Virus record (IMG/VR): IMGVR_UViG_2778261463_000001
Span: 1 to 9,037 of that record
Length of the DNA: 9,037 nucleotides
Strand: one strand, 5' to 3'
From: a virus
Taxonomy: Duplodnaviria; Heunggongvirae; Uroviricota; Caudoviricetes
The notes beneath the pieces were generated by a model. The model made no database searches. It was not told the DNA's origin and saw only the letters and a program-made list of their open reading frames with translations. Positions 1-9,037 of the stretch are shown piece by piece. Each line of letters starts with the position of its first letter. The stretch's first letter is position 1. The translations under genes were made by a program, and so were the position numbers.

Positions 1-154
1 TCGAAACGTACTCTCAACAGTTCGCTTAGGCATGGAAGTTTTGCGGCATTCTGGCTACACAATAACAAGGGAAGACTTACTCGTGGCTGCAACCCTACTA
101 GCTCAAAATTTATTCACACATGGTTACGCTTTGGGGAAATTATGAGGGGATCTC

Positions 155-394
155 TCAGCACTCAGCTCGCCCTTCTTCCCGTCTTTTGTCAATATATTCC
201 GCAAGATCCTGAATGTTGATGCAGCGTTTTGCTTTTTGTGATGTACCGATGCGATATGTAGGTACAGGCAACTTACAAGCGTTTGCTTTTGCTTCTGCTG
301 TGGCTGGACTCATACCAAAGTATTTTTGACTAACTGCTGAGAGTTCAATGTTTAGGGTATTGAATTCAGCCATCAGTAAAAACAAGGTGTTCAT
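155..394 (-). CDS. Excisionase-like small DNA-binding protein (Xis/AlpA-like); start uncertain (alternatives 421, 406, 373)
   Basis: Six-frame ORF 155..421. ATG at 394 has GGAG 6 nt upstream. Small basic protein (motifs KLPVPTYRIG, DLAEYIDKRR) as last gene of the leftward operon, the usual xis position. Family assignment from memory only. Confidence 0.5.
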   Translation of the reverse strand: MNTLFLLMAEFNTLNIELSAVSQKYFGMSPATAEAKANACKLPVPTYRIGTSQKAKRCINIQDLAEYIDKRREEGRAEC

Positions 395-430
395 AATTTT
401 CTCCATCAAAACCGGCTGCACCCGGGAAAA

Positions 431-1006
431 TCATAATTCTGTGCTGGTGGCAGGAATTAATTTCTGCCAGATAGCGGAAACATATTTTGCCTGATGACGA
501 GCATCAGCCAGGGCGTTGTGCCGTTCGCCATCGAAAGGCATGTCCATTTTGGGGTCGAATCCGATGGAACGCCCAAGCGTAACGATCGTGCGTACATCGT
601 GGTCATTCCAGTATGCCCACGGGCAGATTTGTCCTGCTCGCTCATAAGCTCCACGTAAAATTACGTTGTCGAAGGTGGCCCCGTTACCCCAGACTTTTAA
701 ATATTTCGTATTGGCTGCGTGCCGGTTAATGAAATGATTTAGTTCTGAGAGAGCATCGCTGATCGACAAAGTATCATCAATACAGATTGCAGCTCGTGCT
801 TCAGGGCTTTGTTTCAACCACCACAGGATGGTATCGCCGTCAGGTGTAGCTCCTTGCCCCATAGCACTTTCCAGGCTAACAACCGTATAGAATTCTTGTC
901 CGATGTCTCCGGTTTCTGGAGTGAAGAACACCGCGCCAATGGAAACGATCGGTGCATCCTTATTTTTCCCCATCGTCTCAAGGTCGATCATTAAGTTGTT
1001 CATCAC
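431..1006 (-). CDS. DnaQ-like (DEDD) 3'-5' exonuclease, prophage exodeoxyribonuclease-VIII-like
   Basis: 191-aa ORF with N-terminal MIDLETMG (Exo I D-x-E motif) and C-terminal H-x4-D (HNALADA). Start overlaps the upstream stop in ATGA (1003-1006). Confidence 0.7.
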   Translation of the reverse strand: MMNNLMIDLETMGKNKDAPIVSIGAVFFTPETGDIGQEFYTVVSLESAMGQGATPDGDTILWWLKQSPEARAAICIDDTLSISDALSELNHFINRHAANTKYLKVWGNGATFDNVILRGAYERAGQICPWAYWNDHDVRTIVTLGRSIGFDPKMDMPFDGERHNALADARHQAKYVSAIWQKLIPATSTEL

Positions 1007-1569
1007 TTCACCTCCTGCGGCGGTTCCGGTAGCGGCATCCAGTGAGTTGCTTGCTCAATACCATTACCCGGCTTAATCGTTGCATCTCCGCGCCGAAAGG
1101 TGCTTCCGGTATAGCGTGCGGAGCATATTAGCGGTTCAACCAGAGAGCTATCGAAATTCACCGAAATAAGCACGTTCTGGCCCTTTTCAGGCATTTGATC
1201 ACTACAGCTTATCCAACTATCCGGAGTTCCCGGAGAGTTGCCATTTACATCGAAGTTAGGCTCTGCGTCCTGAACTAGGAGGATGTAACCATTCTTGGCT
1301 GTATCAAGTTCTAACGCCTCGGTGACGGTGCCGAAATAGCGATTACCTAAATCAGCATCACAAGTGCTTACATCAATGGAAACTTCCATGCCTTCGATTA
1401 ATTCTGGCAAGTTGTAAGTTTGGCTTACAGGCTCGACTTCCAGTGAGGCTAACGCAATCCGTGCCAGTTCTTCCGCTTCTTCTGCTGGCAGTACAACGTT
1501 GCTACCAGGTCCGTATGTTTCGCGCCACTGCTTGATTGTCAGCAGTCGCTCTTTGGTAATAGTGGTCAT
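1003..1569 (-). CDS. DUF551-family prophage protein
   Basis: 188-aa ORF ending in THWMPLPEPP, the typical DUF551 C-terminal signature. AGGA 7 nt upstream of the ATG. ATGA overlap with the upstream gene at 1566-1569. Confidence 0.7.
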   Translation of the reverse strand: MTTITKERLLTIKQWRETYGPGSNVVLPAEEAEELARIALASLEVEPVSQTYNLPELIEGMEVSIDVSTCDADLGNRYFGTVTEALELDTAKNGYILLVQDAEPNFDVNGNSPGTPDSWISCSDQMPEKGQNVLISVNFDSSLVEPLICSARYTGSTFRRGDATIKPGNGIEQATHWMPLPEPPQEVK

Positions 1570-1775
1570 TTGTTAATCCTCAAAACTTTATGCCCGGGCG
1601 CAAAAGCACGCGTTTTGTCTTTGCTTATTCGCCAGCCATCCTTGCGCGCCTCTTTTGCACAGCCAGCCCATGACGTACCTATATACTCACCGAAGTCTGG
1701 CGACTTATATTTGCCATCTGTACACTGGAGGCAATCACAATAGAGATGCATGGTGTAACTTGCAGCGATAGCCAT
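1566..1775 (-). CDS. Small Cys-rich (putative zinc-binding) phage protein, 69 aa
   Basis: Internal ATG at 1775 of ORF 1566..1937, preceded by AGGAGA. The longer form would overlap the Ea22-like gene out of frame. Contains C-x-C-x2-C ... C cluster (HLYCDCLQC...GC). Confidence 0.55.
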   Translation of the reverse strand: MAIAASYTMHLYCDCLQCTDGKYKSPDFGEYIGTSWAGCAKEARKDGWRISKDKTRAFAPGHKVLRINK

Positions 1776-1776
1776 A

Positions 1777-2328
1777 TCACTCTCCTTTGATGCGAATGCC
1801 AGCGGCGCGCTCAGCTTCATTTTGTTCCCAAAACCACTTGTGAAGCGCCATAAGCTTTTCGTCAATCGGTGCATATTTGCGATTAAAGTAGGCCTGAGCA
1901 TCTTTCTCAGATTCGTCCGGCAATTCGCCTGGGCCAAACAGTGTGTTATAAATCCATGCCAGTCCGCTTTTAGCGTCGCCAGTCGATTGCCATTCGATAA
2001 TGGCAGCCTGCATGACCAGAATGTTTTTCCCGATTAATAGGTCCAGTTCTTTGTACCGGTTGCGGATGTATGCATTCTCGCTTTGTAATTCAGCGTTTCG
2101 CTTCTCTGCTGCTTCCAGCTCATCCAGCAGCGCCAAGACGGTGGCAGGATTGGCGGCGGCTATGAATCGTTTATTGGCGCGATTATCTGGTCCTGAGCAT
2201 GATGCTATGTAGTAATTGGCGTTCAGTCCGGCATCGGCAATTACTCCATGGTAGTCATCAGCACACCATTCGCCTGGTGTTGCATTTTCTGCCGCCAGTC
2301 GCAGAGCCTGATAGTTAATCTCGCTCAC
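1777..2328 (-). CDS. Ead/Ea22-like family protein
   Basis: 183-aa ORF with GTG start at 2328 preceded by AGGAGG (6-nt spacer). GTGA overlap with the upstream stop. Coiled-coil-like acidic protein typical of lambdoid ea22-like early genes (from memory). Confidence 0.6.
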   Translation of the reverse strand: MSEINYQALRLAAENATPGEWCADDYHGVIADAGLNANYYIASCSGPDNRANKRFIAAANPATVLALLDELEAAEKRNAELQSENAYIRNRYKELDLLIGKNILVMQAAIIEWQSTGDAKSGLAWIYNTLFGPGELPDESEKDAQAYFNRKYAPIDEKLMALHKWFWEQNEAERAAGIRIKGE

Positions 2329-2564
2329 TGGTTGCCTCCTTTACGGATCTGCGCTGCGATGCGCGAAAAAAAAGACTCCCGCGTATGACTGTTAAGAGCT
2401 GGCGAGAACGCTGCGTTAAGAACGGCAGCATCACAGCCGTCATCGATATAGAGCGCAATTTTTTTCTCCAGGCGCGCTTTGGCTTCCTGCAACTGCATAC
2501 CCCGGCACGCACGCGGGATATACTCAGCAATTTGAGCGATAGATTTTTCGTTCTGTTTAAACAT
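2325..2564 (-). CDS. Hypothetical small phage protein (79 aa)
   Basis: ORF with GAGGTG 4 nt upstream of the ATG at 2564. Packed in the operon with an 8-nt overlap to the upstream gene. No recognisable domain. Confidence 0.5.
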   Translation of the reverse strand: MFKQNEKSIAQIAEYIPRACRGMQLQEAKARLEKKIALYIDDGCDAAVLNAAFSPALNSHTRESFFSRIAAQIRKGGNQ

Positions 2565-2760
2565 GCTTCACCTCGATAGGCTTGATGCTGTCGATCAGCA
2601 GTCGGCGGCGCGTATTTTCTGCAAAGTGGCGGCGTCCGGTTTCTTTGTGGTAAAACTCGTTTTTTCCGACGACCCACATCCGCTTTGTCTGGTGCAGTTT
2701 TTTTACCTGCGGACCGTCTCGGGTGATAACAATTCCTGTATGAGTTTTTATCACGCTCAT
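2557..2760 (-). CDS. Hypothetical small basic phage protein (67 aa)
   Basis: ORF with GGAG 8 nt upstream of the ATG at 2760. ATGA overlap with the stop of the upstream gene (2757-2760). Confidence 0.5.
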   Translation of the reverse strand: MSVIKTHTGIVITRDGPQVKKLHQTKRMWVVGKNEFYHKETGRRHFAENTRRRLLIDSIKPIEVKHV

Positions 2761-3119
2761 TTCTTATTCTCCGGTGCTTTCGGCATTACTGCCCAGTGAG
2801 TGATATTGACGTTTTCAAGGTCCCCGACCTGAAATGTCCACTGCCATTCTCCGGTTTCTTTTTGTCCCCAGGTGTACCAGAGAGAACGCCAGCCAATTAG
2901 CCAGCCTTCTCCGTTAGCATCAAATAACAGAACACTTTCATTTGCTGGTGGCAGTTCAGCTGACACTGGTATTATTTTGTTTTCCAGTGCCGTACATTTA
3001 GCTTCAAGCGCATCGAATTTACGTACCAGGTACTCAGCATTTGTTTCGTTCACTTTCAGATCTCGCGGTATACATTTCCCGCGAAGAAACCCTTCCATTT
3101 CGAAAACATTCATGCGCAT
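2757..3119 (-). CDS. yfdS: YfdS-like prophage protein (120 aa) with DUF551-like C-terminus
   Basis: 120-aa ORF directly downstream of the yfdR-like gene. Length matches E. coli K-12 YfdS as I recall it. C-terminus ITHWAVMPKAPE resembles the DUF551 signature. Confidence 0.55.
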   Translation of the reverse strand: MRMNVFEMEGFLRGKCIPRDLKVNETNAEYLVRKFDALEAKCTALENKIIPVSAELPPANESVLLFDANGEGWLIGWRSLWYTWGQKETGEWQWTFQVGDLENVNITHWAVMPKAPENKK

Positions 3120-3646
3120 TTGCGTAACTCCGATAAATCGTTAAAACGTTCCATAAACATCCCGTAGGCATGACCCGGTGCCAGTGGAATCACGTTGAAC
3201 ATCTCTGTTGCCGGGATGCCTTCCAGTACAGGCCAGAAAGAGCCATCATCAAGCCCGAGATCGCGGCGTTCGGTTGCCAGCATGATGAGATCGGCATATT
3301 TCACGGGTGTACTCATAACTGGGGGTAACCCGTATTTCTCACGGATTACGGCGTCTATTTTTTCTTCCATCCGTTTATAGTCAGGAAGAAGGCGTTTCAG
3401 TGGTGCGGGAATGTCCTGGCAATACGCTTCTGTTGCATCATGCATTAACGCTTCAAAAGCAAATTCCTGCGGCACCAGCTGGCTGCAAAGAACCGCATGT
3501 TGGGCGACGCTGTAGAAGTGCGAAAGATGACCGGCAAAGCGACAGATATTTGAAAGGGAAACCGCGATATCGTTAATATCGATGTCGTCTTTATTTATCT
3601 TGTCATAATAAAAATGCTTCCCGGAAAAAGTTTTAATAAATGACAT
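3110..3646 (-). CDS. yfdR: HD-domain phosphohydrolase, YfdR-like (178 aa)
   Basis: ORF 3110..3673; ATG at 3646 preceded by GGAGAA gives 178 aa. Metal-binding motifs H-x..-HD-x..-D visible (HAVLCSQ...LMHDATEAYCQDIP). Length and context match K-12 YfdR. Confidence 0.7.
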   Translation of the reverse strand: MSFIKTFSGKHFYYDKINKDDIDINDIAVSLSNICRFAGHLSHFYSVAQHAVLCSQLVPQEFAFEALMHDATEAYCQDIPAPLKRLLPDYKRMEEKIDAVIREKYGLPPVMSTPVKYADLIMLATERRDLGLDDGSFWPVLEGIPATEMFNVIPLAPGHAYGMFMERFNDLSELRKCA

Positions 3647-3739
3647 TTTGTTCTCCACGTATATGCACTGCACCGCGCTGAATTCTGGTAAAAGGAAGCC
3701 CTCACCATCCGGTGATTATTGAGTTAATTACGTTTCCAT

Positions 3740-3761
3740 AAATGCCCCCGCAGGGGCATTT
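3740..3761 (-). promoter_or_regulatory. Intergenic GC-rich hairpin between the yfdQ-like and yfdR-like genes (9-bp perfect stem, 4-nt loop)
   Basis: AAATGCCCC-cgca-GGGGCATTT. Only 3 T/U follow the stem on either strand, so at most a weak terminator; could be an RNA stability or processing element. Confidence 0.35.
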
Positions 3762-3773
3762 GCAGTAATGAAA

Positions 3774-4598
3774 TCAGGCGGTGAAAGTACCAATAAAGGT
3801 TTCTACTTTGCTGTCTTTGAATTTCTCAACAAGCAGATCACGAAATTCGTTAGCCATTTCTTCCTGCACCGCTTCCAGCTGAATAATGCGCAGAACCAGT
3901 ACAGGACGATCGCCAGTGATAATGCTGAGGCGTAATTTAAACGGACGTTCTTTCAGACCTTCAAACGGAACGCATTTAAATTCAAATGCCACTGGCATAA
4001 TGTCTTTGGTCTTCGCTTCGACAGACTCCATCAGGGAGCGTTTGCCGCTGAAGTCATTATCTTCAAAATCAGCGGTCTGGTTTGCTTCAATCGTGATTTT
4101 ACGGACTGCCGCAGCCGCTTTTGTTGCTTGAATGGCGTCACCATTAGCATCAAAGCCCACAAGGTAGTCGGCCCAGTCTTCGATCCATTCTGCCAGTGAC
4201 TTCTGGGAGTTACGCTCGCCGTTAACAGACAACAGAGCAGAGAACGGTGCTGTCTTTTTCAGTTTGAGAGTGGCAGTGTTATCTGCGTGACCTGGCTCAT
4301 CAATAGTACCCAGGTTAAGCACACTGACGGCACGCATATTATCGGCATCGATAAAGCAGCGGGTGCCTTCATCTGCAAGATCTTTAGAATAACGGGTAAA
4401 ATCATCGATGCTGGCAGTGGAAAGTGCACCACGGAAACGGAAGCGATTTAAATTAAATTTTTCCAGATCATGAATGCGGAAATTCTCAGGCAATGCCACA
4501 GCATCGGCACCAATCTTACTGATAATTTCATTAACACCCTGAGCAGAAATAAGGGCATGGATTTGATTAATTGCGGTTGCGTCTAAGTTCTGAGACAT
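3774..4598 (-). CDS. yfdQ: YfdQ-like protein (DUF2303 family), 274 aa
   Basis: 274-aa ORF between the yfdP-like and yfdR-like genes. Length and gene order match the K-12 CPS-53 yfdP-yfdQ-yfdR-yfdS block (from memory). Confidence 0.65.
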
Positions 4599-4663
4599 AA
4601 TAAGTCCTCACTATATAAAGATATTCAGTGATGAGATAAATAATCAGTTTATTACGAACGATA

Positions 4664-5026
4664 TTAACGACCTGCTGCGCGGAGTTTTCCGTCAGGTTCA
4701 CCGGCAAGAGTCAGTAATTGTCCCTGGTCTTCCTGCAGAATAGTCAGGCGACCACCGCGATTGACATACATCGGCGTTTCGGTGGTGTCTTCTTCGGAAA
4801 TTTTCCCGCGGTTAGTCGGGCGAATATAAGAGAGTTTGTGTTTGATTTTCACACGGTTCTCATCAAATGGTTCGATTTCCAGGTTGAGTGAGACCTTACC
4901 TTTGGTTTTCGTGTTCATCACACCGGAAGCGACTTCACTGAGAACAGCGCCGATTTTGGTTTCAAATACGCCGCCGTCCAGCTCCCCGATAAATGCCTGC
5001 ACATCAGTACTGCGTTCGCTAGCCAT
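4664..5026 (-). CDS. yfdP: YfdP-like protein (120 aa), first gene of the pL operon
   Basis: ATG at 5026 preceded by GAGGAG (7-nt spacer) gives 120 aa (MASERSTDVQ...). The six-frame extension to a TTG at 5212 runs through a 15-bp perfect inverted repeat and lacks an RBS, so is judged non-coding. Confidence 0.6.
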   Translation of the reverse strand: MASERSTDVQAFIGELDGGVFETKIGAVLSEVASGVMNTKTKGKVSLNLEIEPFDENRVKIKHKLSYIRPTNRGKISEEDTTETPMYVNRGGRLTILQEDQGQLLTLAGEPDGKLRAAGR

Positions 5027-5074
5027 TTTGCTGCTCCTCATCATATCGACCCTGTAAGGTCGGTTGGTTTCTCC

Positions 5075-5163
5075 ACAAAACAGAGAAGAACACCTGCGGT
5101 GGCAGCCGCCCGGATGGATTGGGTTATGAGCCCGTCGTCCGGTGATGCTCTTCTCTGTTTTGT
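5075..5163 (-). repeat. 15-bp perfect inverted repeat (ACAAAACAGAGAAGA / TCTTCTCTGTTTTGT) enclosing 59 bp, in the 5' leader of the yfdP-like gene
   Basis: Arms at 5075-5089 and 5149-5163 are exact reverse complements. Expected number of such repeats by chance in 9 kb is about 0.001. Function (RNA stem, processing site or protein site) is inferred, not shown. Confidence 0.6.
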
Positions 5164-5209
5164 AAAAAGAGCGGTACCAGCCGGAAGCAAGTGTACAAAC
5201 TGGTACCGC
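5164..5209 (-). terminator. Terminator-like hairpin on the pL transcript: 10-bp perfect stem, 19-nt loop, then UCUUUUU
   Basis: GCGGTACCAG (5171-5180) and CTGGTACCGC (5200-5209) are exact reverse complements. On the minus strand the stem is followed immediately by a T-rich tract (plus 5164-5170). The loop is long for a classical intrinsic terminator. Confidence 0.35.
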
Positions 5210-5367
5210 CAAAGCAGTGGCTGTTGTGGTGACCGGTGCTGATCTCCGGCTTGCGGTTATTTCAGACTCTCACGGGCGTTTAATTGCCCCGCCGAACAGC
5301 TCTTTTCCGCAATAGCTGCAATGTCTTTCGCGCATCAGCCTGCGCATTCACCACAACTCTAAAAACA

Positions 5368-5420
5368 AATGTAGGATATCCAACATGTGAGTGTCAAGAG
5401 TTTATGTTGGTTATCCTACA
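5368..5420 (-). promoter_or_regulatory. OL/pL: leftward promoter (-35 TTGACA at 5397-5392, -10 TACATT at 5373-5368, 18-bp spacer) with two 16-bp dyad operators
   Basis: Operators TGTAGGATATCCAACA (5370-5385) and TGTTGGTTATCCTACA (5405-5420). The first is identical to OR1 in reverse complement. Promoter hexamers read on the minus strand. Confidence 0.6.
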
Positions 5421-5437
5421 TAAAAAGATAGGCTCAT

Positions 5438-5463
5438 AAAAAAACCGGGGATACCCCGGTTTT
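5438..5463 (-). terminator. Intrinsic terminator downstream of cI (bidirectional architecture)
   Basis: A7-CCGGGG-ATA-CCCCGG-T4 starting 20 nt past the cI stop. On the minus strand the 6-bp GC stem is followed by 7 U. Confidence 0.7.
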
Positions 5464-5483
5464 GCGATAGTGAGGAAGATGTG

Positions 5484-6137
5484 TCAAAAATCCATTATTA
5501 CTTGTTTGACAAGACCAACTATTCTGCAGTTCTCACCGCATTCAATAGTTTTATAGTTAGGATTTAGTGGGACGAGATACCTGTTCGGCCAGTCCTCAAC
5601 AAATTTTTTGAGTGTCGCTTCTTGCCCACCATTGATATGGGCAACAACGATTTTTCCGTTAATACACTCTGTATCAATAATATCTGGCTCTACGATAACG
5701 ATAGAACCTTCTGGTATCGATGGTGAGCCGAGGGGATTGGTCATTGAATCACCACGGACCCGTAGTGCAAATGCCATTTCTGATACAAGGGCGGTAGTAT
5801 AAACCCACTCTTCAGCATCTTCTTTCCTGACACCAGGCTCCGTCATTGTCCATGAACCCGCCTGAACCCACGAGATGAGGGGGACTTTTTTAACTGCGAA
5901 TATTTCAGGTTTTAGATTTATCTTTGGTTCAGGCGAGCCTTTTCCGCTAACAAGCCACAGAGGATCGCATTTAAGTGCGTTGGCTAGGGCTTGAAGGTTG
6001 GCTCCATTTGGTTGGTAGTCGTCCTTTTCCCATCCAGTAACCGTGACACGGTTCACACCAGTCAAATCAGCCAGTGCTTGTTGTGTCAGGTTCAGTTCTT
6101 TTCGCCTTTGGCGAATACGATCACTCATGTTCATCAT
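5484..6137 (-). CDS. cI: CI-type prophage repressor: N-terminal HTH (XRE family) plus C-terminal S24 LexA-like autopeptidase
   Basis: 217-aa ORF. HTH region LTQQALADLTGVNRVTVTGWE. Probable Ala-Gly cleavage site (VQAGSW). Catalytic Ser in RGDSM and downstream Lys (TLKKF). Divergent from cro across an operator region. Confidence 0.85.
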   Translation of the reverse strand: MMNMSDRIRQRRKELNLTQQALADLTGVNRVTVTGWEKDDYQPNGANLQALANALKCDPLWLVSGKGSPEPKINLKPEIFAVKKVPLISWVQAGSWTMTEPGVRKEDAEEWVYTTALVSEMAFALRVRGDSMTNPLGSPSIPEGSIVIVEPDIIDTECINGKIVVAHINGGQEATLKKFVEDWPNRYLVPLNPNYKTIECGENCRIVGLVKQVIMDF

Positions 6138-6201
6138 GTAGGCAATCCTACCACATGCCCATGTAGGATTCTTGACATTGGCATGTTGGATATCCTACAT
6201 T
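6137..6201. promoter_or_regulatory. OR/pR/pRM: three operators plus rightward promoter pR (-35 TTGACA 6172-6177, -10 TACATT 6196-6201, 18-bp spacer)
   Basis: OR1 TGTTGGATATCCTACA (6184-6199) lies between -35 and -10. OR2-like TGTAGGATTCTTGACA (6162-6177) overlaps the -35. OR3-like TGTAGGCAATCCTACC (6137-6152) abuts the cI start codon. Centre-to-centre spacing is 22-25 bp. Confidence 0.65.
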
Positions 6202-6232
6202 TCTGCTTAACGTAATTTAACGGGAGACAGAA

Positions 6233-6430
6233 ATGCGGAAATCCGACGTGATTAATTATTTCGGCGGAGTTTGTAAAACCGCCGAAGCCCTAGGTATTAA
6301 GCATCCGTCTGTTTCAGAGTGGCCTGAGATTATTCCTGAAGGCCGAGCGTACCAGTTAGAAAAAATTACTAACGGGAAACTGAAAGTTGACGTGTCTTTA
6401 TATCAAAAGACTAACAGTGCTGCGGCATAA
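6233..6430 (+). CDS. cro: Cro-like small HTH regulator (YdaS-type)
   Basis: 65-aa ORF with GGGAGA 5 nt upstream of the ATG, directly downstream of pR. HTH-like segment CKTAEALGIKHPSVSEW. Confidence 0.75.
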   Translation: MRKSDVINYFGGVCKTAEALGIKHPSVSEWPEIIPEGRAYQLEKITNGKLKVDVSLYQKTNSAAA

Positions 6431-6457
6431 AAACACCACAGAAATGAGGAATTAACC

Positions 6458-7036
6458 GTGGGTAAAGAACCTGAATGGAAAGTTGATAAACAACCAGCAT
6501 GGCTGGTGGCAGCAATACGAAGAACGATTGCTGATTTACCTCATGGCTATGAGGAAGCAGCAGAAATTCTTGGTTTGTATAAATCTGATGATATCACCCC
6601 AGCAAAAGATCAATTGCATAACAGACTGCGTAGCGGTGGGGATCAAATTTTTCCACTTGAGTGGGCCATGGTTTTACAGGATGCCAGTGGTACCAGGCAT
6701 GTAACAGATGCAATAGCCCGTCGTAGTAATGGGGTGTTTGTGCCGCTGGTGGTCATTGATGACATTGACAATGGTGACATTAATCAGCGGCTGATGGAGT
6801 CAATAGAATGGATTGGCAAGCATTCCCAGTACTTACGCAAGGCAACTGCTGATGGAGTTATTGACCTGGCTGAGCGTGAGCAAATCGAAGAGAACAGCTA
6901 CCAAGTAATGGCGAAGTGGCAGGAGCATTTAACACTGTTATTTCGTGTTTTTTGTGCGCCGGAAAAGAGTGACGCCCGCGAGTGTGCAGCTCCGGGCGTC
7001 GTGGCGTTTTGTGTCTGTGGAGAAACTAACGCATGA
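6458..7036 (+). CDS. CII-like regulator (YdaT-type), 192 aa
   Basis: GTG start at 6458 with GAGGA 8 nt upstream. Sits immediately after cro, as in the cI/YdaS/YdaT modules of Rac-like prophages. Family assignment from memory. Confidence 0.6.
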   Translation: MGKEPEWKVDKQPAWLVAAIRRTIADLPHGYEEAAEILGLYKSDDITPAKDQLHNRLRSGGDQIFPLEWAMVLQDASGTRHVTDAIARRSNGVFVPLVVIDDIDNGDINQRLMESIEWIGKHSQYLRKATADGVIDLAEREQIEENSYQVMAKWQEHLTLLFRVFCAPEKSDARECAAPGVVAFCVCGETNA

Positions 7037-8103
7037 ACAGTTTAACGGCAAATAACCGTTGGTCGCAACAGCTGGTGGTCCGCGTGGCTGAACACCTGTT
7101 GTTACGGCATGAATGCAGATTACCAAATCACCTGGCTGTAAGTAACCACAGAGAACTTTACCTGACTGTGGGGGGCGAGTTGTGCAGGAACTTAACCGCT
7201 GGTTTCGTGACGGAAGAGGGCTTTATGTTCATGTTATTCGTTGGGAACCAGAAACACAGCGCGTTATCTATCTTCGCAAAGACTACCCGCATGAGTGCTT
7301 TAGTCCTTTGTGGAAATTCAGGCGTGATTTTGTTGAGTGTGAAGGACCACCAGCACATTGATTCTGCCATTCCGGGACGTTACACTGTTCAGGCACCTTA
7401 TAAAGCGGGTGCCGGGATTGGCGTCCTGAAATTGATTACTGAGCATAACCGCGCTCATGCGGTTTTTTCGTGTCATGAGCATTGCTACGCCCAAATTATG
7501 GTGGGGCGTACAGGGCCGACTTCGGTCGGGCCGGGTTCGGTAGTCTCCGGTAACGCCAACCCTGTACGTCTCACCACCTCTGTGATTGGCGTCCCATGTG
7601 GTGAGTTTTCTAAAAAACTGACTACCGGGGCTGTCACCATGACTACTCTCCCAACCCTCTCTCAACCTGAAATTGCCATCGTTGATGGTCAGGCTGTTAC
7701 ATCTTCTTTGGCTGTTGCTGACTTCTTCTCTAAACGTCATGACGATGTTCTGAAAAAGATCCGCATTTTGGATTGTTCTCCAGAGTTTTGTGCCCGCAAT
7801 TTTGCGGAGACATCAATTTTGGTACGCCAGCCCAACGGCGGTACTCGCAAACTTCCTTGCTACCAAATCACACGCGACGGTTTTGCGTTTCTTGCTATGG
7901 GTTTCACGGGTAAACGTGCTGCCCAGTTCAAAGAGGCATATATCAATGCCTTTAACCAGATGGAGAAACAGCTTTCAAAGCCCGCTGTACCGAGCGACGT
8001 TGCACATAACGCCAGCGTTCTCTGTTCCTACATTTCATCAATTCATCAGGTCTGGCTGCAGCAGCTTTATCCCGAAAGGGAAGGTCGAGATCACTATCAG
8101 TAA
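7033..8103 (+). CDS. Rha-family phage regulatory protein (long form): ~200 N-terminal residues of unknown function fused in frame to a C-terminal pRha domain
   Basis: 356-codon open frame whose ATG overlaps the cII-like stop (ATGA at 7033-7036). Residues from about 7639 match the Rha core (KRHDDVLKKIR, ITRDGFAFLAMGFTGKRAAQFKEAYINAFNQME). Alternative starts at 7498 or 7639 would give 201 or 154 aa. Confidence 0.5.
   Translation: MNSLTANNRWSQQLVVRVAEHLLLRHECRLPNHLAVSNHRELYLTVGGELCRNLTAGFVTEEGFMFMLFVGNQKHSALSIFAKTTRMSALVLCGNSGVILLSVKDHQHIDSAIPGRYTVQAPYKAGAGIGVLKLITEHNRAHAVFSCHEHCYAQIMVGRTGPTSVGPGSVVSGNANPVRLTTSVIGVPCGEFSKKLTTGAVTMTTLPTLSQPEIAIVDGQAVTSSLAVADFFSKRHDDVLKKIRILDCSPEFCARNFAETSILVRQPNGGTRKLPCYQITRDGFAFLAMGFTGKRAAQFKEAYINAFNQMEKQLSKPAVPSDVAHNASVLCSYISSIHQVWLQQLYPEREGRDHYQ
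7447..7468 (+). terminator. Terminator-like hairpin (AACCGC-gctcat-GCGGTT followed by a T-run) inside the long ORF
   Basis: 6-bp stem with 6-nt loop; six consecutive T at 7463-7468. Weak stem, and it lies inside an open reading frame, so it may be fortuitous. Confidence 0.25.
7499..7576 (+). other. Strand-specific RNA stem-loop element: 17-bp closing stem with two G-U pairs enclosing a CCGAC-UUCG-GUCGG tetraloop hairpin
   Basis: 7499-7515 pairs with 7560-7576 (15 Watson-Crick plus 2 G-T pairs, so it folds only as plus-strand RNA). Inner hairpin 7516-7529. Tandem imperfect 15-nt repeat GGGCCGACTTCGGTC / GGGCCGGGTTCGGTA. Confidence 0.4.
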
Positions 8104-8153
8104 GTATGAGAAACCGGCGGGTGCAGCCGCCTGATTAAGAGGAGAAACGAAGT

Positions 8154-8963
8154 ATGAATAATCTGATAGTTATTGATGGTATTGAAGTTCGTCGTGATGC
8201 TTATGGGCGTTACAGCCTGAACGATCTGCACAGGGCAGCCGGGGGAGAACAAAAAAACCGCCCGAAATACTGGCTCTCCAATAAGCAAACCTGTGAATTG
8301 ATTGAACAACTTTTCACCGAGGGTGAAATTCCGCCTCTGGAACAAAATCAACCAGTTAGCGTCATTAATGGCGGAAATAACCAGGGGACGTATGTCTGCA
8401 AAGAACTGGTGTATGCCTATGCAATGTGGATCAGCCCGTCATTCCATCTGAAGGTGATCCGTACTTTCGATATGGTAACCAGCGCACCGGAAAAATTATC
8501 CGGGCAGGCTGCTGACAAGATGCAGGCTGGTGTGATTCTGCTGGACTTTATGCGCCGGGAGTTAAACCTGTCTAACTCTTCAGTGCTTGGTGCCTGTCAG
8601 AAACTCCAGGAGGCTGTTGGCTTACCGAATCTGGCACCGCGCTATGCCATTGATGCTCCTGCTGACGCGCCTGATGGCTCAAGTCGCCCTACGCTGTCGC
8701 TGAGTGCACTGCTGAAACAGTATGGTATCCGCCTTACGGCTAATCAGGCATATCACCAGATGGCGAAGCTGGGGATCGTTGAACAACGCGAACGATACAG
8801 CCGTACCACGATTAACAACATCAAAAAATTCTGGTCGCTGACAGCGAAAGGTTGCATGTTCGGCAAGAACATCACCAGTCCCGCAAATCCGCGCGAGACG
8901 CAGCCGCATTTCTTCGAATCCCGATTCCCTGAGCTGTTAAAGTTGCTCGATACCGTTCATTGA
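8154..8963 (+). CDS. KilA-N domain protein (putative antirepressor or host-interference protein), 269 aa
   Basis: AGGAG 9 nt upstream of the ATG. N-terminal KilA-N hallmarks: VIDGIEVRRDAYGRYSLNDLHRAAGGE...NRPKYWL and ELVYAYAMWISPSFHLKVIRTFD. Confidence 0.75.
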   Translation: MNNLIVIDGIEVRRDAYGRYSLNDLHRAAGGEQKNRPKYWLSNKQTCELIEQLFTEGEIPPLEQNQPVSVINGGNNQGTYVCKELVYAYAMWISPSFHLKVIRTFDMVTSAPEKLSGQAADKMQAGVILLDFMRRELNLSNSSVLGACQKLQEAVGLPNLAPRYAIDAPADAPDGSSRPTLSLSALLKQYGIRLTANQAYHQMAKLGIVEQRERYSRTTINNIKKFWSLTAKGCMFGKNITSPANPRETQPHFFESRFPELLKLLDTVH

Positions 8964-8970
8964 GGTGACC

Positions 8971-9037
8971 GTGAGAGCACTACTGACCCCTGAAATTGCC
9001 CCGCGTATGGGGATCGTATTGTTCAGGCCAGGTTCAG
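8971..9037 (+). CDS. 5' end of a further rightward gene (partial, runs off the window)
   Basis: GTG at 8971 preceded by GAGGTGA; open to the window edge (VRALLTPEIAPRMGIVLFRPGS...). Too short to assign a product. Confidence 0.3.
   Translation, partial: MRALLTPEIAPRMGIVLFRPGS

Follow-up and report, generated by a model that had tools for sequence, protein, structure and literature searches.

The window carries a yfdP-yfdQ-yfdR-yfdS block matching that of E. coli K-12

The 9,037-nucleotide (nt) stretch of caudoviral DNA analysed here (IMG/VR record IMGVR_UViG_2778261463_000001, positions 1 to 9,037; hereafter the window, to which all coordinates refer) carries the genes yfdP, yfdQ, yfdR and yfdS, known from the CPS-53 (KpLE1) prophage remnant of Escherichia coli K-12, together with a phage immunity region and, between the two, a structured leader RNA. 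All four genes lie on the minus strand: yfdP (4664-5026) encodes 120 amino acids (aa), yfdQ (3774-4598) a 274-aa DUF2303 protein, yfdR (3110-3646) a 178-aa HD-domain protein of the 5'-deoxynucleotidase family, and yfdS (2757-3119) a 120-aa DUF551 protein. Compared by BLASTP with the K-12 MG1655 proteins translated from the CPS-53 region of NC_000913, they are 97.5% (E-value 9e-88), 99.3% (E-value 0), 99.4% (E-value 3e-137) and, across 117 aa, 98.3% (E-value 3e-88) identical to YfdP, YfdQ, YfdR and YfdS, respectively. This corresponds to zero to three residue differences per protein, with V23D the only substitution in YfdR, and at the DNA level to 97.8% identity over 2,277 bp (2769-5045). Chance is ruled out as the source of the match. 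The initial annotation, made from the sequence alone, had likened the lengths of 120, 274, 178 and 120 aa and the P-Q-R-S order to CPS-53, and the protein comparison bears this out; the range 3110-5026 that it gave for all four genes is wrong, as that range holds only yfdP, yfdQ and yfdR.

Genes, lengths, order, gaps and overlaps are the same in CPS-53 and in the window. We place the yfdP start at an ATG with a Shine-Dalgarno sequence (SD), GAGGAG, about 9 nt 5' of it, in preference to an upstream TTG. The yfdS and yfdR genes overlap by 10 bp, and the 127-bp gap between yfdQ and yfdR holds a stem-loop (3740-3761, minus strand; AAAUGCCCC-UGCG-GGGGCAUUU) with a 9-bp GC-rich stem, which K-12 has too. 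From its sequence, this stem-loop is a possible partial terminator or transcript stabiliser, and it could attenuate transcription between yfdQ and yfdR.

The two loci differ on either side of the shared genes. CPS-53 has yfdT, which is missing from the window, where two other small open reading frames (ORFs), of 67 and 79 aa, and an Ea22-like gene come after yfdS instead. Upstream, the window has cI, cro, pL, the operators and the entire leader RNA, none of which K-12 retains, and homology between the two ends 19 bp 5' of the yfdP ATG. In K-12 the divergently oriented genes yfdM, yfdN and yfdO directly abut yfdP; in intact relatives these are genes of the right-arm replication region. Because yfdP abuts these inverted right-arm remnants, a simple deletion of cI, cro and everything between would account for the K-12 arrangement. 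The statement in the initial annotation that the K-12 copy sits in a degraded prophage without cI and cro was correct.

The block lies first in the pL operon behind an intact immunity region

Upstream of the block lies a gene for a cI-type repressor (5484-6137, minus strand; 217 aa), with matches to HTH_3 (E-value 1e-15) and Peptidase_S24 (E-value 4e-25) and labelled 'LexA family protein' in near-identical prophages. On the plus strand follow cro (6233-6430; P22_Cro, E-value 8e-22) and a gene for a YmfL/CII-like regulator (6458-7036; Phage_CP76, E-value 7e-6; NCBIfam phage_reg_YmfL, E-value 6.5e-53). The cI gene is followed by an intrinsic terminator (5441-5463, minus strand), a perfect 10-bp inverted repeat of the form AAAACCGGGG-AUA-CCCCGGUUUU with a U-run after it. 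Next comes pL (5368-5397, minus strand), with a -35 element TTGACA (5397-5392) and a -10 element TACATT (5373-5368) spaced by 18 nt, for which a promoter scan gave 10 of 12 matches. The promoter for cro, pR (-35 at 6172-6177, -10 at 6196-6201, plus strand), is its mirror image, and a 40-nt inverted repeat with 85% identity contains both.

Both promoters are overlapped by candidate operators. Two 18-bp palindromes, ATGTaGGATATCCtACAT, overlap pL on the minus strand (OL1, 5369-5386; OL2, 5404-5421), and the pR region is overlapped by sites at 6183-6200 and 6135-6151 with a weaker site between them. The palindromic 18-bp consensus, ATGTAGGATATCCTACAT, is common to pL and pR; at no more than three mismatches it matches three places in the window (5369-5386, 5404-5421 and 6183-6200), compared with 0.00 expected. 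A classical divergent pL/pR pair under one repressor is thus well supported, with operator binding and transcription predicted from these signals. The initial annotation had placed the block as the first genes of the pL operon behind an intact immunity region, and this placement is upheld by the CI, Cro and CII-like genes and by the operators that pL and pR share. From the arrangement of genes and signals we regard it as close to certain that yfdP-Q-R(-S) are the first protein-coding genes of the early-left operon. We found no N, kil, gam, bet or exo gene in the left arm of the window, and as for N as the first pL gene, no ORF between pL and yfdP has a family match, the frames there being short and not conserved.

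Because the CI operators overlap pL, the module would be silenced together with pR in a lysogen. The cI transcript would stop at its own terminator upstream of pL, and upon induction or infection pL transcripts would cross the structured leader and then yfdP-Q-R-S and the remaining left arm as far as xis. This layout bears on whether the block serves the lysogen, by being expressed there and helping the host to tolerate stress, which we consider very improbable. K-12 ΔyfdQ and ΔyfdS strains do have H2O2, acid and methyl methanesulfonate phenotypes (cited in PMC4776307), and K-12 kept the block after the remaining prophage decayed. In the intact element, however, pL is covered by operators and a terminator ends the cI transcript before the block. 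This control region is precisely what K-12 no longer has, and expression of the block there may therefore differ from the native pattern.

The same early-left position, in a window without exo, bet and gam, could suggest that the block is an unrecognised recombination module that replaces Red/Gam in phages lacking Rec functions. Phages such as ArgO145, however, carry the cluster alongside a full Rec module of their own, and not all phages without Rec functions have it; a 2025 Genome Research paper, which reports both points, concludes that a hidden recombination module is unlikely. We find this explanation barely credible.

The leader between pL and yfdP is a mosaic

From the pL start (~5361) to the yfdP ATG the leader spans ~335 nt and contains no conserved ORF. 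As RNA it folds far better than shuffled sequences do (z = -6.25). It is a mosaic that consists, in order, of a mobile segment, a first hairpin (hairpin A), a larger structure (element B), a second hairpin (hairpin C) and the yfdP ribosome-binding site.

The mobile segment (5222-5357, minus strand) makes up the first ~140 nt of the pL transcript. It is 98.5% identical to a segment that lies beside tRNA-Asn and tRNA-Thr genes and plp in the P1-like phage RCS47, and it occurs in 271 plasmids, mostly non-mobilisable phage-plasmids. Leaders of the SfV type lack it and share only 5027-5211 with the window. Judging from these similarities, the segment is a place where lambdoid and P1-like elements were joined by recombination. 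We considered the first 140 nt as the regulator of the leader and rejected the idea, as they are a mosaic segment shared with P1-like phage-plasmids and absent from many yfdP leaders.

Hairpin A (5171-5209, or 5164-5209 with its U-tract, minus strand) has the form GGCGGUACCAG...CUGGUACCGC followed by a U-tract, folds at -21 kcal/mol, and resembles an intrinsic terminator, here predicted to lie inside the pL leader. Of 24 homologous leaders, about 15 have a GC-rich hairpin with five to seven U residues after it, the stem sequences differing; the rest have an SD and ATG that start a short, non-conserved ORF. The U-tract of hairpin A doubles as the 5' strand of the base of helix P1 in element B. 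Hairpin C (5045-5064, minus strand), recognised from the fold, lies just 5' of the yfdP ribosome-binding site. Its stem varies with pairing kept, reading CGACC/GGUCG here and GGCGG/CCGCC in most other loci.

Element B is a conserved three-way-junction RNA

Element B (5063-5173, minus strand) is a three-way junction, with a P1 helix of ~23 bp, a P2 helix capped by an invariant hairpin, GGGCUCAUAACCC, and a variable P3. It is the most conserved part of the region: its 27-nt loop motif, GACGGGCTCATNACCCAATCCANCCGG, is exact in 20 species genomes of Enterobacterales, in loci where the adjoining proteins fall to 52-69% identity. RNAalifold, run on 24 aligned leaders, gave 37 base pairs; nine show compensatory changes, and many are G-U. 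Within element B, 98% of the cells are paired, compared with 40-56% in a control in which the partners were slid, and none of 500 shuffles reached its covariation score. With a covariance model the sense strand reaches 114 bits and the antisense strand 32, which argues that the structure belongs to the pL transcript; the model finds one copy per prophage. P3 ranges from a few to ~40 nt, as expected of a peripheral stem. We conclude that element B is well supported as a conserved structure, and it appears undescribed: a search of the leader against Rfam returned no family at E-values up to 10, and we found no paper on a small RNA or leader at this position.

Over 14 nt the P2 hairpin, CGGGCUCAUAACCC, has the same sequence as the anticodon arm of the E. 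coli initiator tRNA (metZ); element B is nevertheless not tRNA-like overall, and ARAGORN finds no tRNA in it. A small protein was considered as an explanation of the conservation and rejected. Some loci do have an open frame, but five of 24 lack a start codon, stops are scattered, and the conserved 3' arm would often be untranslated.

Element B is also not tied to yfdP. It precedes an rdgC-like gene and yfdR at one locus (L020), another ORF and yfdR at a second (L018) and yfdR alone at a third (L011), and at a fourth (L023) it heads an operon without any yfd gene. Since it stands before early-left operons with differing first genes, we regard it as an operon leader and not a yfdP-specific one. 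A 176-nt query spanning hairpins A to C and element B (5040-5215) has matches in 2,492 of 5,426 E. coli genomes, which carry no annotation for it; the K-12 remnant lacks element B.

Candidate roles of element B

The leaders of two other phages offer comparisons. HK022, also a phage that has no N, likewise carries structured stem RNAs, the put RNAs, in its pL leader. A put RNA, however, is ~70 nt long, has two stems, lies at +1 and has a second copy after pR, whereas element B is ~110 nt long, forms a three-way junction 188 nt from the pL start, and exists as a single copy downstream of a terminator-like hairpin. In the HK022 immunity region the element B covariance model has no match, and in a 43-kb prophage it has only one. 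Together with the lack of similarity to the HK022 pL leader, both by eye and with the covariance model, and of a second copy after pR, this led us to reject a put-like reading of the leader. In lambda, the RNase III site of the N leader is an extended duplex that, like element B, lies within the pL leader and shortly upstream of the first gene. Its sequence is unrelated to element B.

One tentative proposal, to which we give a minor share of our confidence, is that element B represents a hitherto undescribed class of regulator acting in cis on the early operons of N-less lambdoid phages of Enterobacterales. It would be a processive antiterminator without relation to HK022 put and would allow pL transcription to pass terminator-like hairpins and reach yfdPQR and the remaining left arm; its invariant apical hairpin, as a copy of the initiator-tRNA anticodon arm, would be the surface that RNA polymerase or a host factor recognises. 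Such an antiterminator would answer a remark by the authors of the LLS paper that N-less phages of the LLS type 'may have a put RNA'. Against it stand the absence of similarity to put, the single copy without a partner after pR, and the position downstream of hairpin A. Element B could equally well be an RNase III site, formed by the 23-bp P1, an operator bound by a protein, or a mimic of a tRNA arm.

The layout is widespread among N-less lambdoid phages

Of 5,426 complete E. coli genomes, 3,172 match a 3-kb query of the block plus leader, 1,564 of them over at least 80% of its length, and the NCBI Prokaryotic Genome Annotation Pipeline (PGAP) already names yfdP, yfdQ, yfdR and yfdS in the matching genomes. 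The block is also present in 148 phage records, which include mEp460, SfV, SfII, SfIV, ST64B, LLS, cdtI, many Stx2c phages and some Stx2a phages. In every phage that we opened (mEp460, ST64B, LLS, SfV and Stx2a_WGPS2) cII and cro run in one direction, and cI, the leader, yfdP-Q-R and finally xis-int in the other. The prophage at dusA of strain ETEC4069 (L002) has the same cI-leader-yfdP-Q-R layout, as do species genomes of a dozen genera, among them Citrobacter, Enterobacter, Kosakonia, Mixta, Leclercia and Erwinia. At these loci beyond E. coli the proteins are 52-69% identical, and the repressors are of several unrelated types.

The lambdoid phages mEp460, SfV, ST64B, LLS, Stx2a_WGPS2 and the Stx2c phages thus share the arrangement of the window, likewise without N, and differ from it in immunity specificity and in the genes after yfdR; in SfV, moreover, cI is separated from the block by terminators and one further ORF. 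Phages of the LLS type have been reported to lack N (LLS paper), and the cluster has been described as common in lambdoid early-left operons, with the functions of YfdQ and YfdP given as unknown (2025 Genome Research paper). The block and its early-left placement are therefore already known, at textbook level for this phage group.

A possible role of the block in damping host replication

The initial annotation proposed that the block might be a repressor-controlled module that interferes with host replication, and referred to published work that YfdR binds DnaA and that overexpression of the yfdQ-R-S-T cluster inhibits initiation. This literature is real and was accurately summarised. Noguchi & Katayama (2016) found that yfdQ and yfdR in multicopy, together with yfdS or yfdT, suppress over-initiation in hda-185, dnaAcos and seqA strains, and that the same set inhibits initiation in wild-type cells as well (PMC4776307). 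Purified K-12 YfdR binds DnaA in a manner that depends on Phe46 and moderately inhibits the binding of DiaA and of DnaB to DnaA, and extracts inhibit oriC replication in vitro (PMC4776307). The authors proposed a role in phage growth and pointed to orf29-31 of phage SfV (PMC4776307). The replication-interference idea is thus restated published speculation, now with an intact control region attached.

Because zero to three residues differ, the biochemical properties of the K-12 proteins transfer directly to those of the window. Inferring from the K-12 experiments, YfdR would bind domain I of DnaA at Phe46 and compete with DiaA and DnaB, and together with YfdQ and a DUF551-type partner would lower initiation at oriC. 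The module would then serve to take over the host early, by damping its replication. More speculatively, DnaB kept off DnaA might become available to a phage origin served by an O-like protein alone, and the weak deoxynucleoside monophosphate (dNMP) phosphatase activity of YfdR might act on the nucleotide pool in parallel. In all five block-carrying phages or prophages whose right arm we viewed (L002, L004, L007, L008 and L030), an O-like replication protein is annotated, without a helicase or loader. Such O-only right arms fit the hypothesis, in that a phage of this kind might benefit if DnaB is kept off DnaA. Lambda offers a parallel, in that its exo-xis region affects the host cell cycle; both this region and lambda P are, likewise, early phage products acting on DnaA or on initiation at oriC. 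The binding of lambda P to DnaA has been compared with that of YfdR (PMC4776307): lambda P binds domain III and YfdR domain I (Phe46), the two have no sequence relationship, and YfdR is known from multicopy work in K-12.

Taken as a whole, the reading of the block as the yfdP-Q-R(-S) module of an N-less lambdoid prophage, orthologous to the CPS-53 remnant and in its native place, which would damp host replication early, strikes us as evenly balanced between right and wrong. For the replication role in the phage life cycle, which we argue from K-12, we would make a minority-to-even bet.

Several points weigh against this reading. In K-12 the replication effect needs multicopy expression, deletion has no initiation phenotype, inhibition is moderate, and the 2016 authors themselves allow for an overexpression artefact (PMC4776307). 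In the same work yfdP was dispensable for the effect (PMC4776307), and yet it is conserved and first in the operon. Across genera only P-Q-R are syntenic, with S/T replaced (ST64B and LLS carry other genes after yfdR), and we found no YfdS matches outside Escherichia/Shigella loci; the replacement of S/T is a poor fit with the requirement for S or T in K-12. The structure prediction of YfdP and YfdQ yielded no functional clue. Finally, the terminator-like hairpin A stands between pL and the block, whose expression may need a read-through mechanism.

Protein families and other explanations for the block

The family assignment of YfdR suggests a different function. YfdR matches PHROG 318/8467, 'deoxyribonucleoside 5' monophosphate phosphatase' (E-value 5e-110, to PHROG 318), shows Pfam YfbR-like and HD_3 matches in which the HD motif region is aligned, has a relative of known structure (2gz4, E-value 4e-14), and is named 5'-deoxynucleotidase by PGAP. 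It is also the gene most constantly linked to the leader RNA, being present even where P and Q are not (L011, L018 and L020). These features would be explained if the block were a nucleotide-pool module, in which the HD-domain 5'-deoxynucleotidase dephosphorylates dNMPs early, DnaA binding is a by-product of overexpression, and YfdP and YfdQ are accessory. Phage T5, for comparison, makes a dNMP phosphatase as a pre-early function. The scores of YfdR, however, fall under the family cut-offs, at 24.3 compared with 25.9 bits for Pfam YfbR-like PF12917 and 19.9 compared with 122 for the NCBIfam YfbR equivalog; by these scores YfdR is a more distant HD-domain relative and should not be filed as YfbR. 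Its nucleotide affinities are moreover far lower than YfbR's, and DnaA binding by the purified protein is specific for Phe46 (PMC4776307). A nucleotide-pool module remains in our view a distinct but minority prospect.

For the other block proteins the matches give less detail. YfdS reaches DUF551 (PF04448) marginally, with 22.2 bits for a cut-off of 22 over residues 50-117. YfdP belongs to PHROG 204, of unknown function, and has no match in our local Pfam copy, while its database homologues carry PF27127; its AlphaFold2 (AF2) model, with a predicted local distance difference test score (pLDDT) of 80, has a long helix and a three-strand meander, and no convincing structural neighbour. YfdQ matches DUF2303 (PF10065) over profile positions 2-269 of 269, with 309.7 bits (cut-off 26.6; E-value 2e-92). 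A relative of YfdQ is deposited in the PDB as 'YfdQ protein' (9o7m, 274 aa; E-value 1e-44 to the window protein), for which we found no publication, and its 36 chains imply that this relative forms a large homo-oligomer. A fold search with the AF2 model of YfdQ (pLDDT 76.5) gave no informative neighbour in libraries that do not include 9o7m.

YfdP and an oligomeric YfdQ might instead act in host takeover or counter-defence unrelated to replication, by neutralising a function of the host or of a competing prophage. They are the very first early genes, in a position typical of anti-host functions, and neither has a known fold or belongs to a known family; a 36-chain assembly of a YfdQ relative would suit such a role. 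When YfdQ was produced in K-12 that carried phage SW1, this triggered the formation of plaques (bioRxiv 10.1101/413146), a result that is compatible with a pro-lytic role of YfdQ and is not mechanistic. On the other side, the argument is purely one from position, no PADLOC model matched YfdP, YfdQ, YfdR or YfdS, and we found no anti-defence literature on YfdQ or DUF2303. We consider this explanation rather unlikely.

Remaining features of the window

The minus-strand gene run continues without interruption from ~5026 down to 155, with most stops and starts overlapping. Below the block, the rest of the early-left operon (155-2760, minus strand) comprises, in order, the 67-aa ORF, the 79-aa ORF, the Ea22-like gene, a small ORF, and genes for a DUF551-type protein, an exonuclease and an excisionase. 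The Ea22-like gene (1777-2328, minus strand) has Pfam Ead_Ea22 at the N-terminus of its product, and residues 72-172 of that protein match the PADLOC model 'DpdH' (E-value 1e-36). The DUF551-type protein (1003-1569, minus strand) has 188 aa; it is followed by a DnaQ-like 3'-5' exonuclease (431-1006, minus strand; PHROG exonuclease) and a PrtN-type excisionase (155-421, minus strand; PHROG excisionase). An identical left-arm gene order is annotated in the ETEC4069 prophage (L002) and in phage mEp460.

On the plus strand of the right arm, Rfam models detect isrK (7393-7469; 59 bits) and C4 antisense RNA (7494-7581; 82 bits), both above their gathering scores, upstream of genes of the Rha-family and KilA-N antirepressor type. 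Going by these models and their gene neighbours, the unit at 7393-7581 is a predicted antirepressor control unit like P1/P7 immI or Gifsy-1 isrK-anrP. The 356-aa ORF listed at 7033-8103 (plus strand) covers the isrK and C4 genes, and its first ~200 codons are probably an artefact; the true start of the Rha-family protein is most likely near 7640 (MTTLPTLSQPEIAIVDGQ...).

The window is itself a mosaic. The best match in a complete E. coli genome covers 87% of it at 95.5% identity in six pieces, and none has it whole; elsewhere its left arm and its right arm (isrK/C4/Rha/KilA) are combined differently.

Implications

The YfdPQRS block adds little by itself, since it is among the commonest prophage modules of E. 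coli and standard annotation already names it. Of greater importance is the leader RNA: about half of complete E. coli genomes have it without annotation, it is more conserved than the proteins encoded downstream, and the phages that carry it are ones whose early antitermination and O-only replication are openly described as not understood, the replication of LLS-type phages among them (LLS paper). The intact context seen here is a natural, repressor-controlled system for asking whether the binding of YfdR to DnaA matters to the phage, a question out of reach of the K-12 remnant, in which neither pL nor the leader survives.

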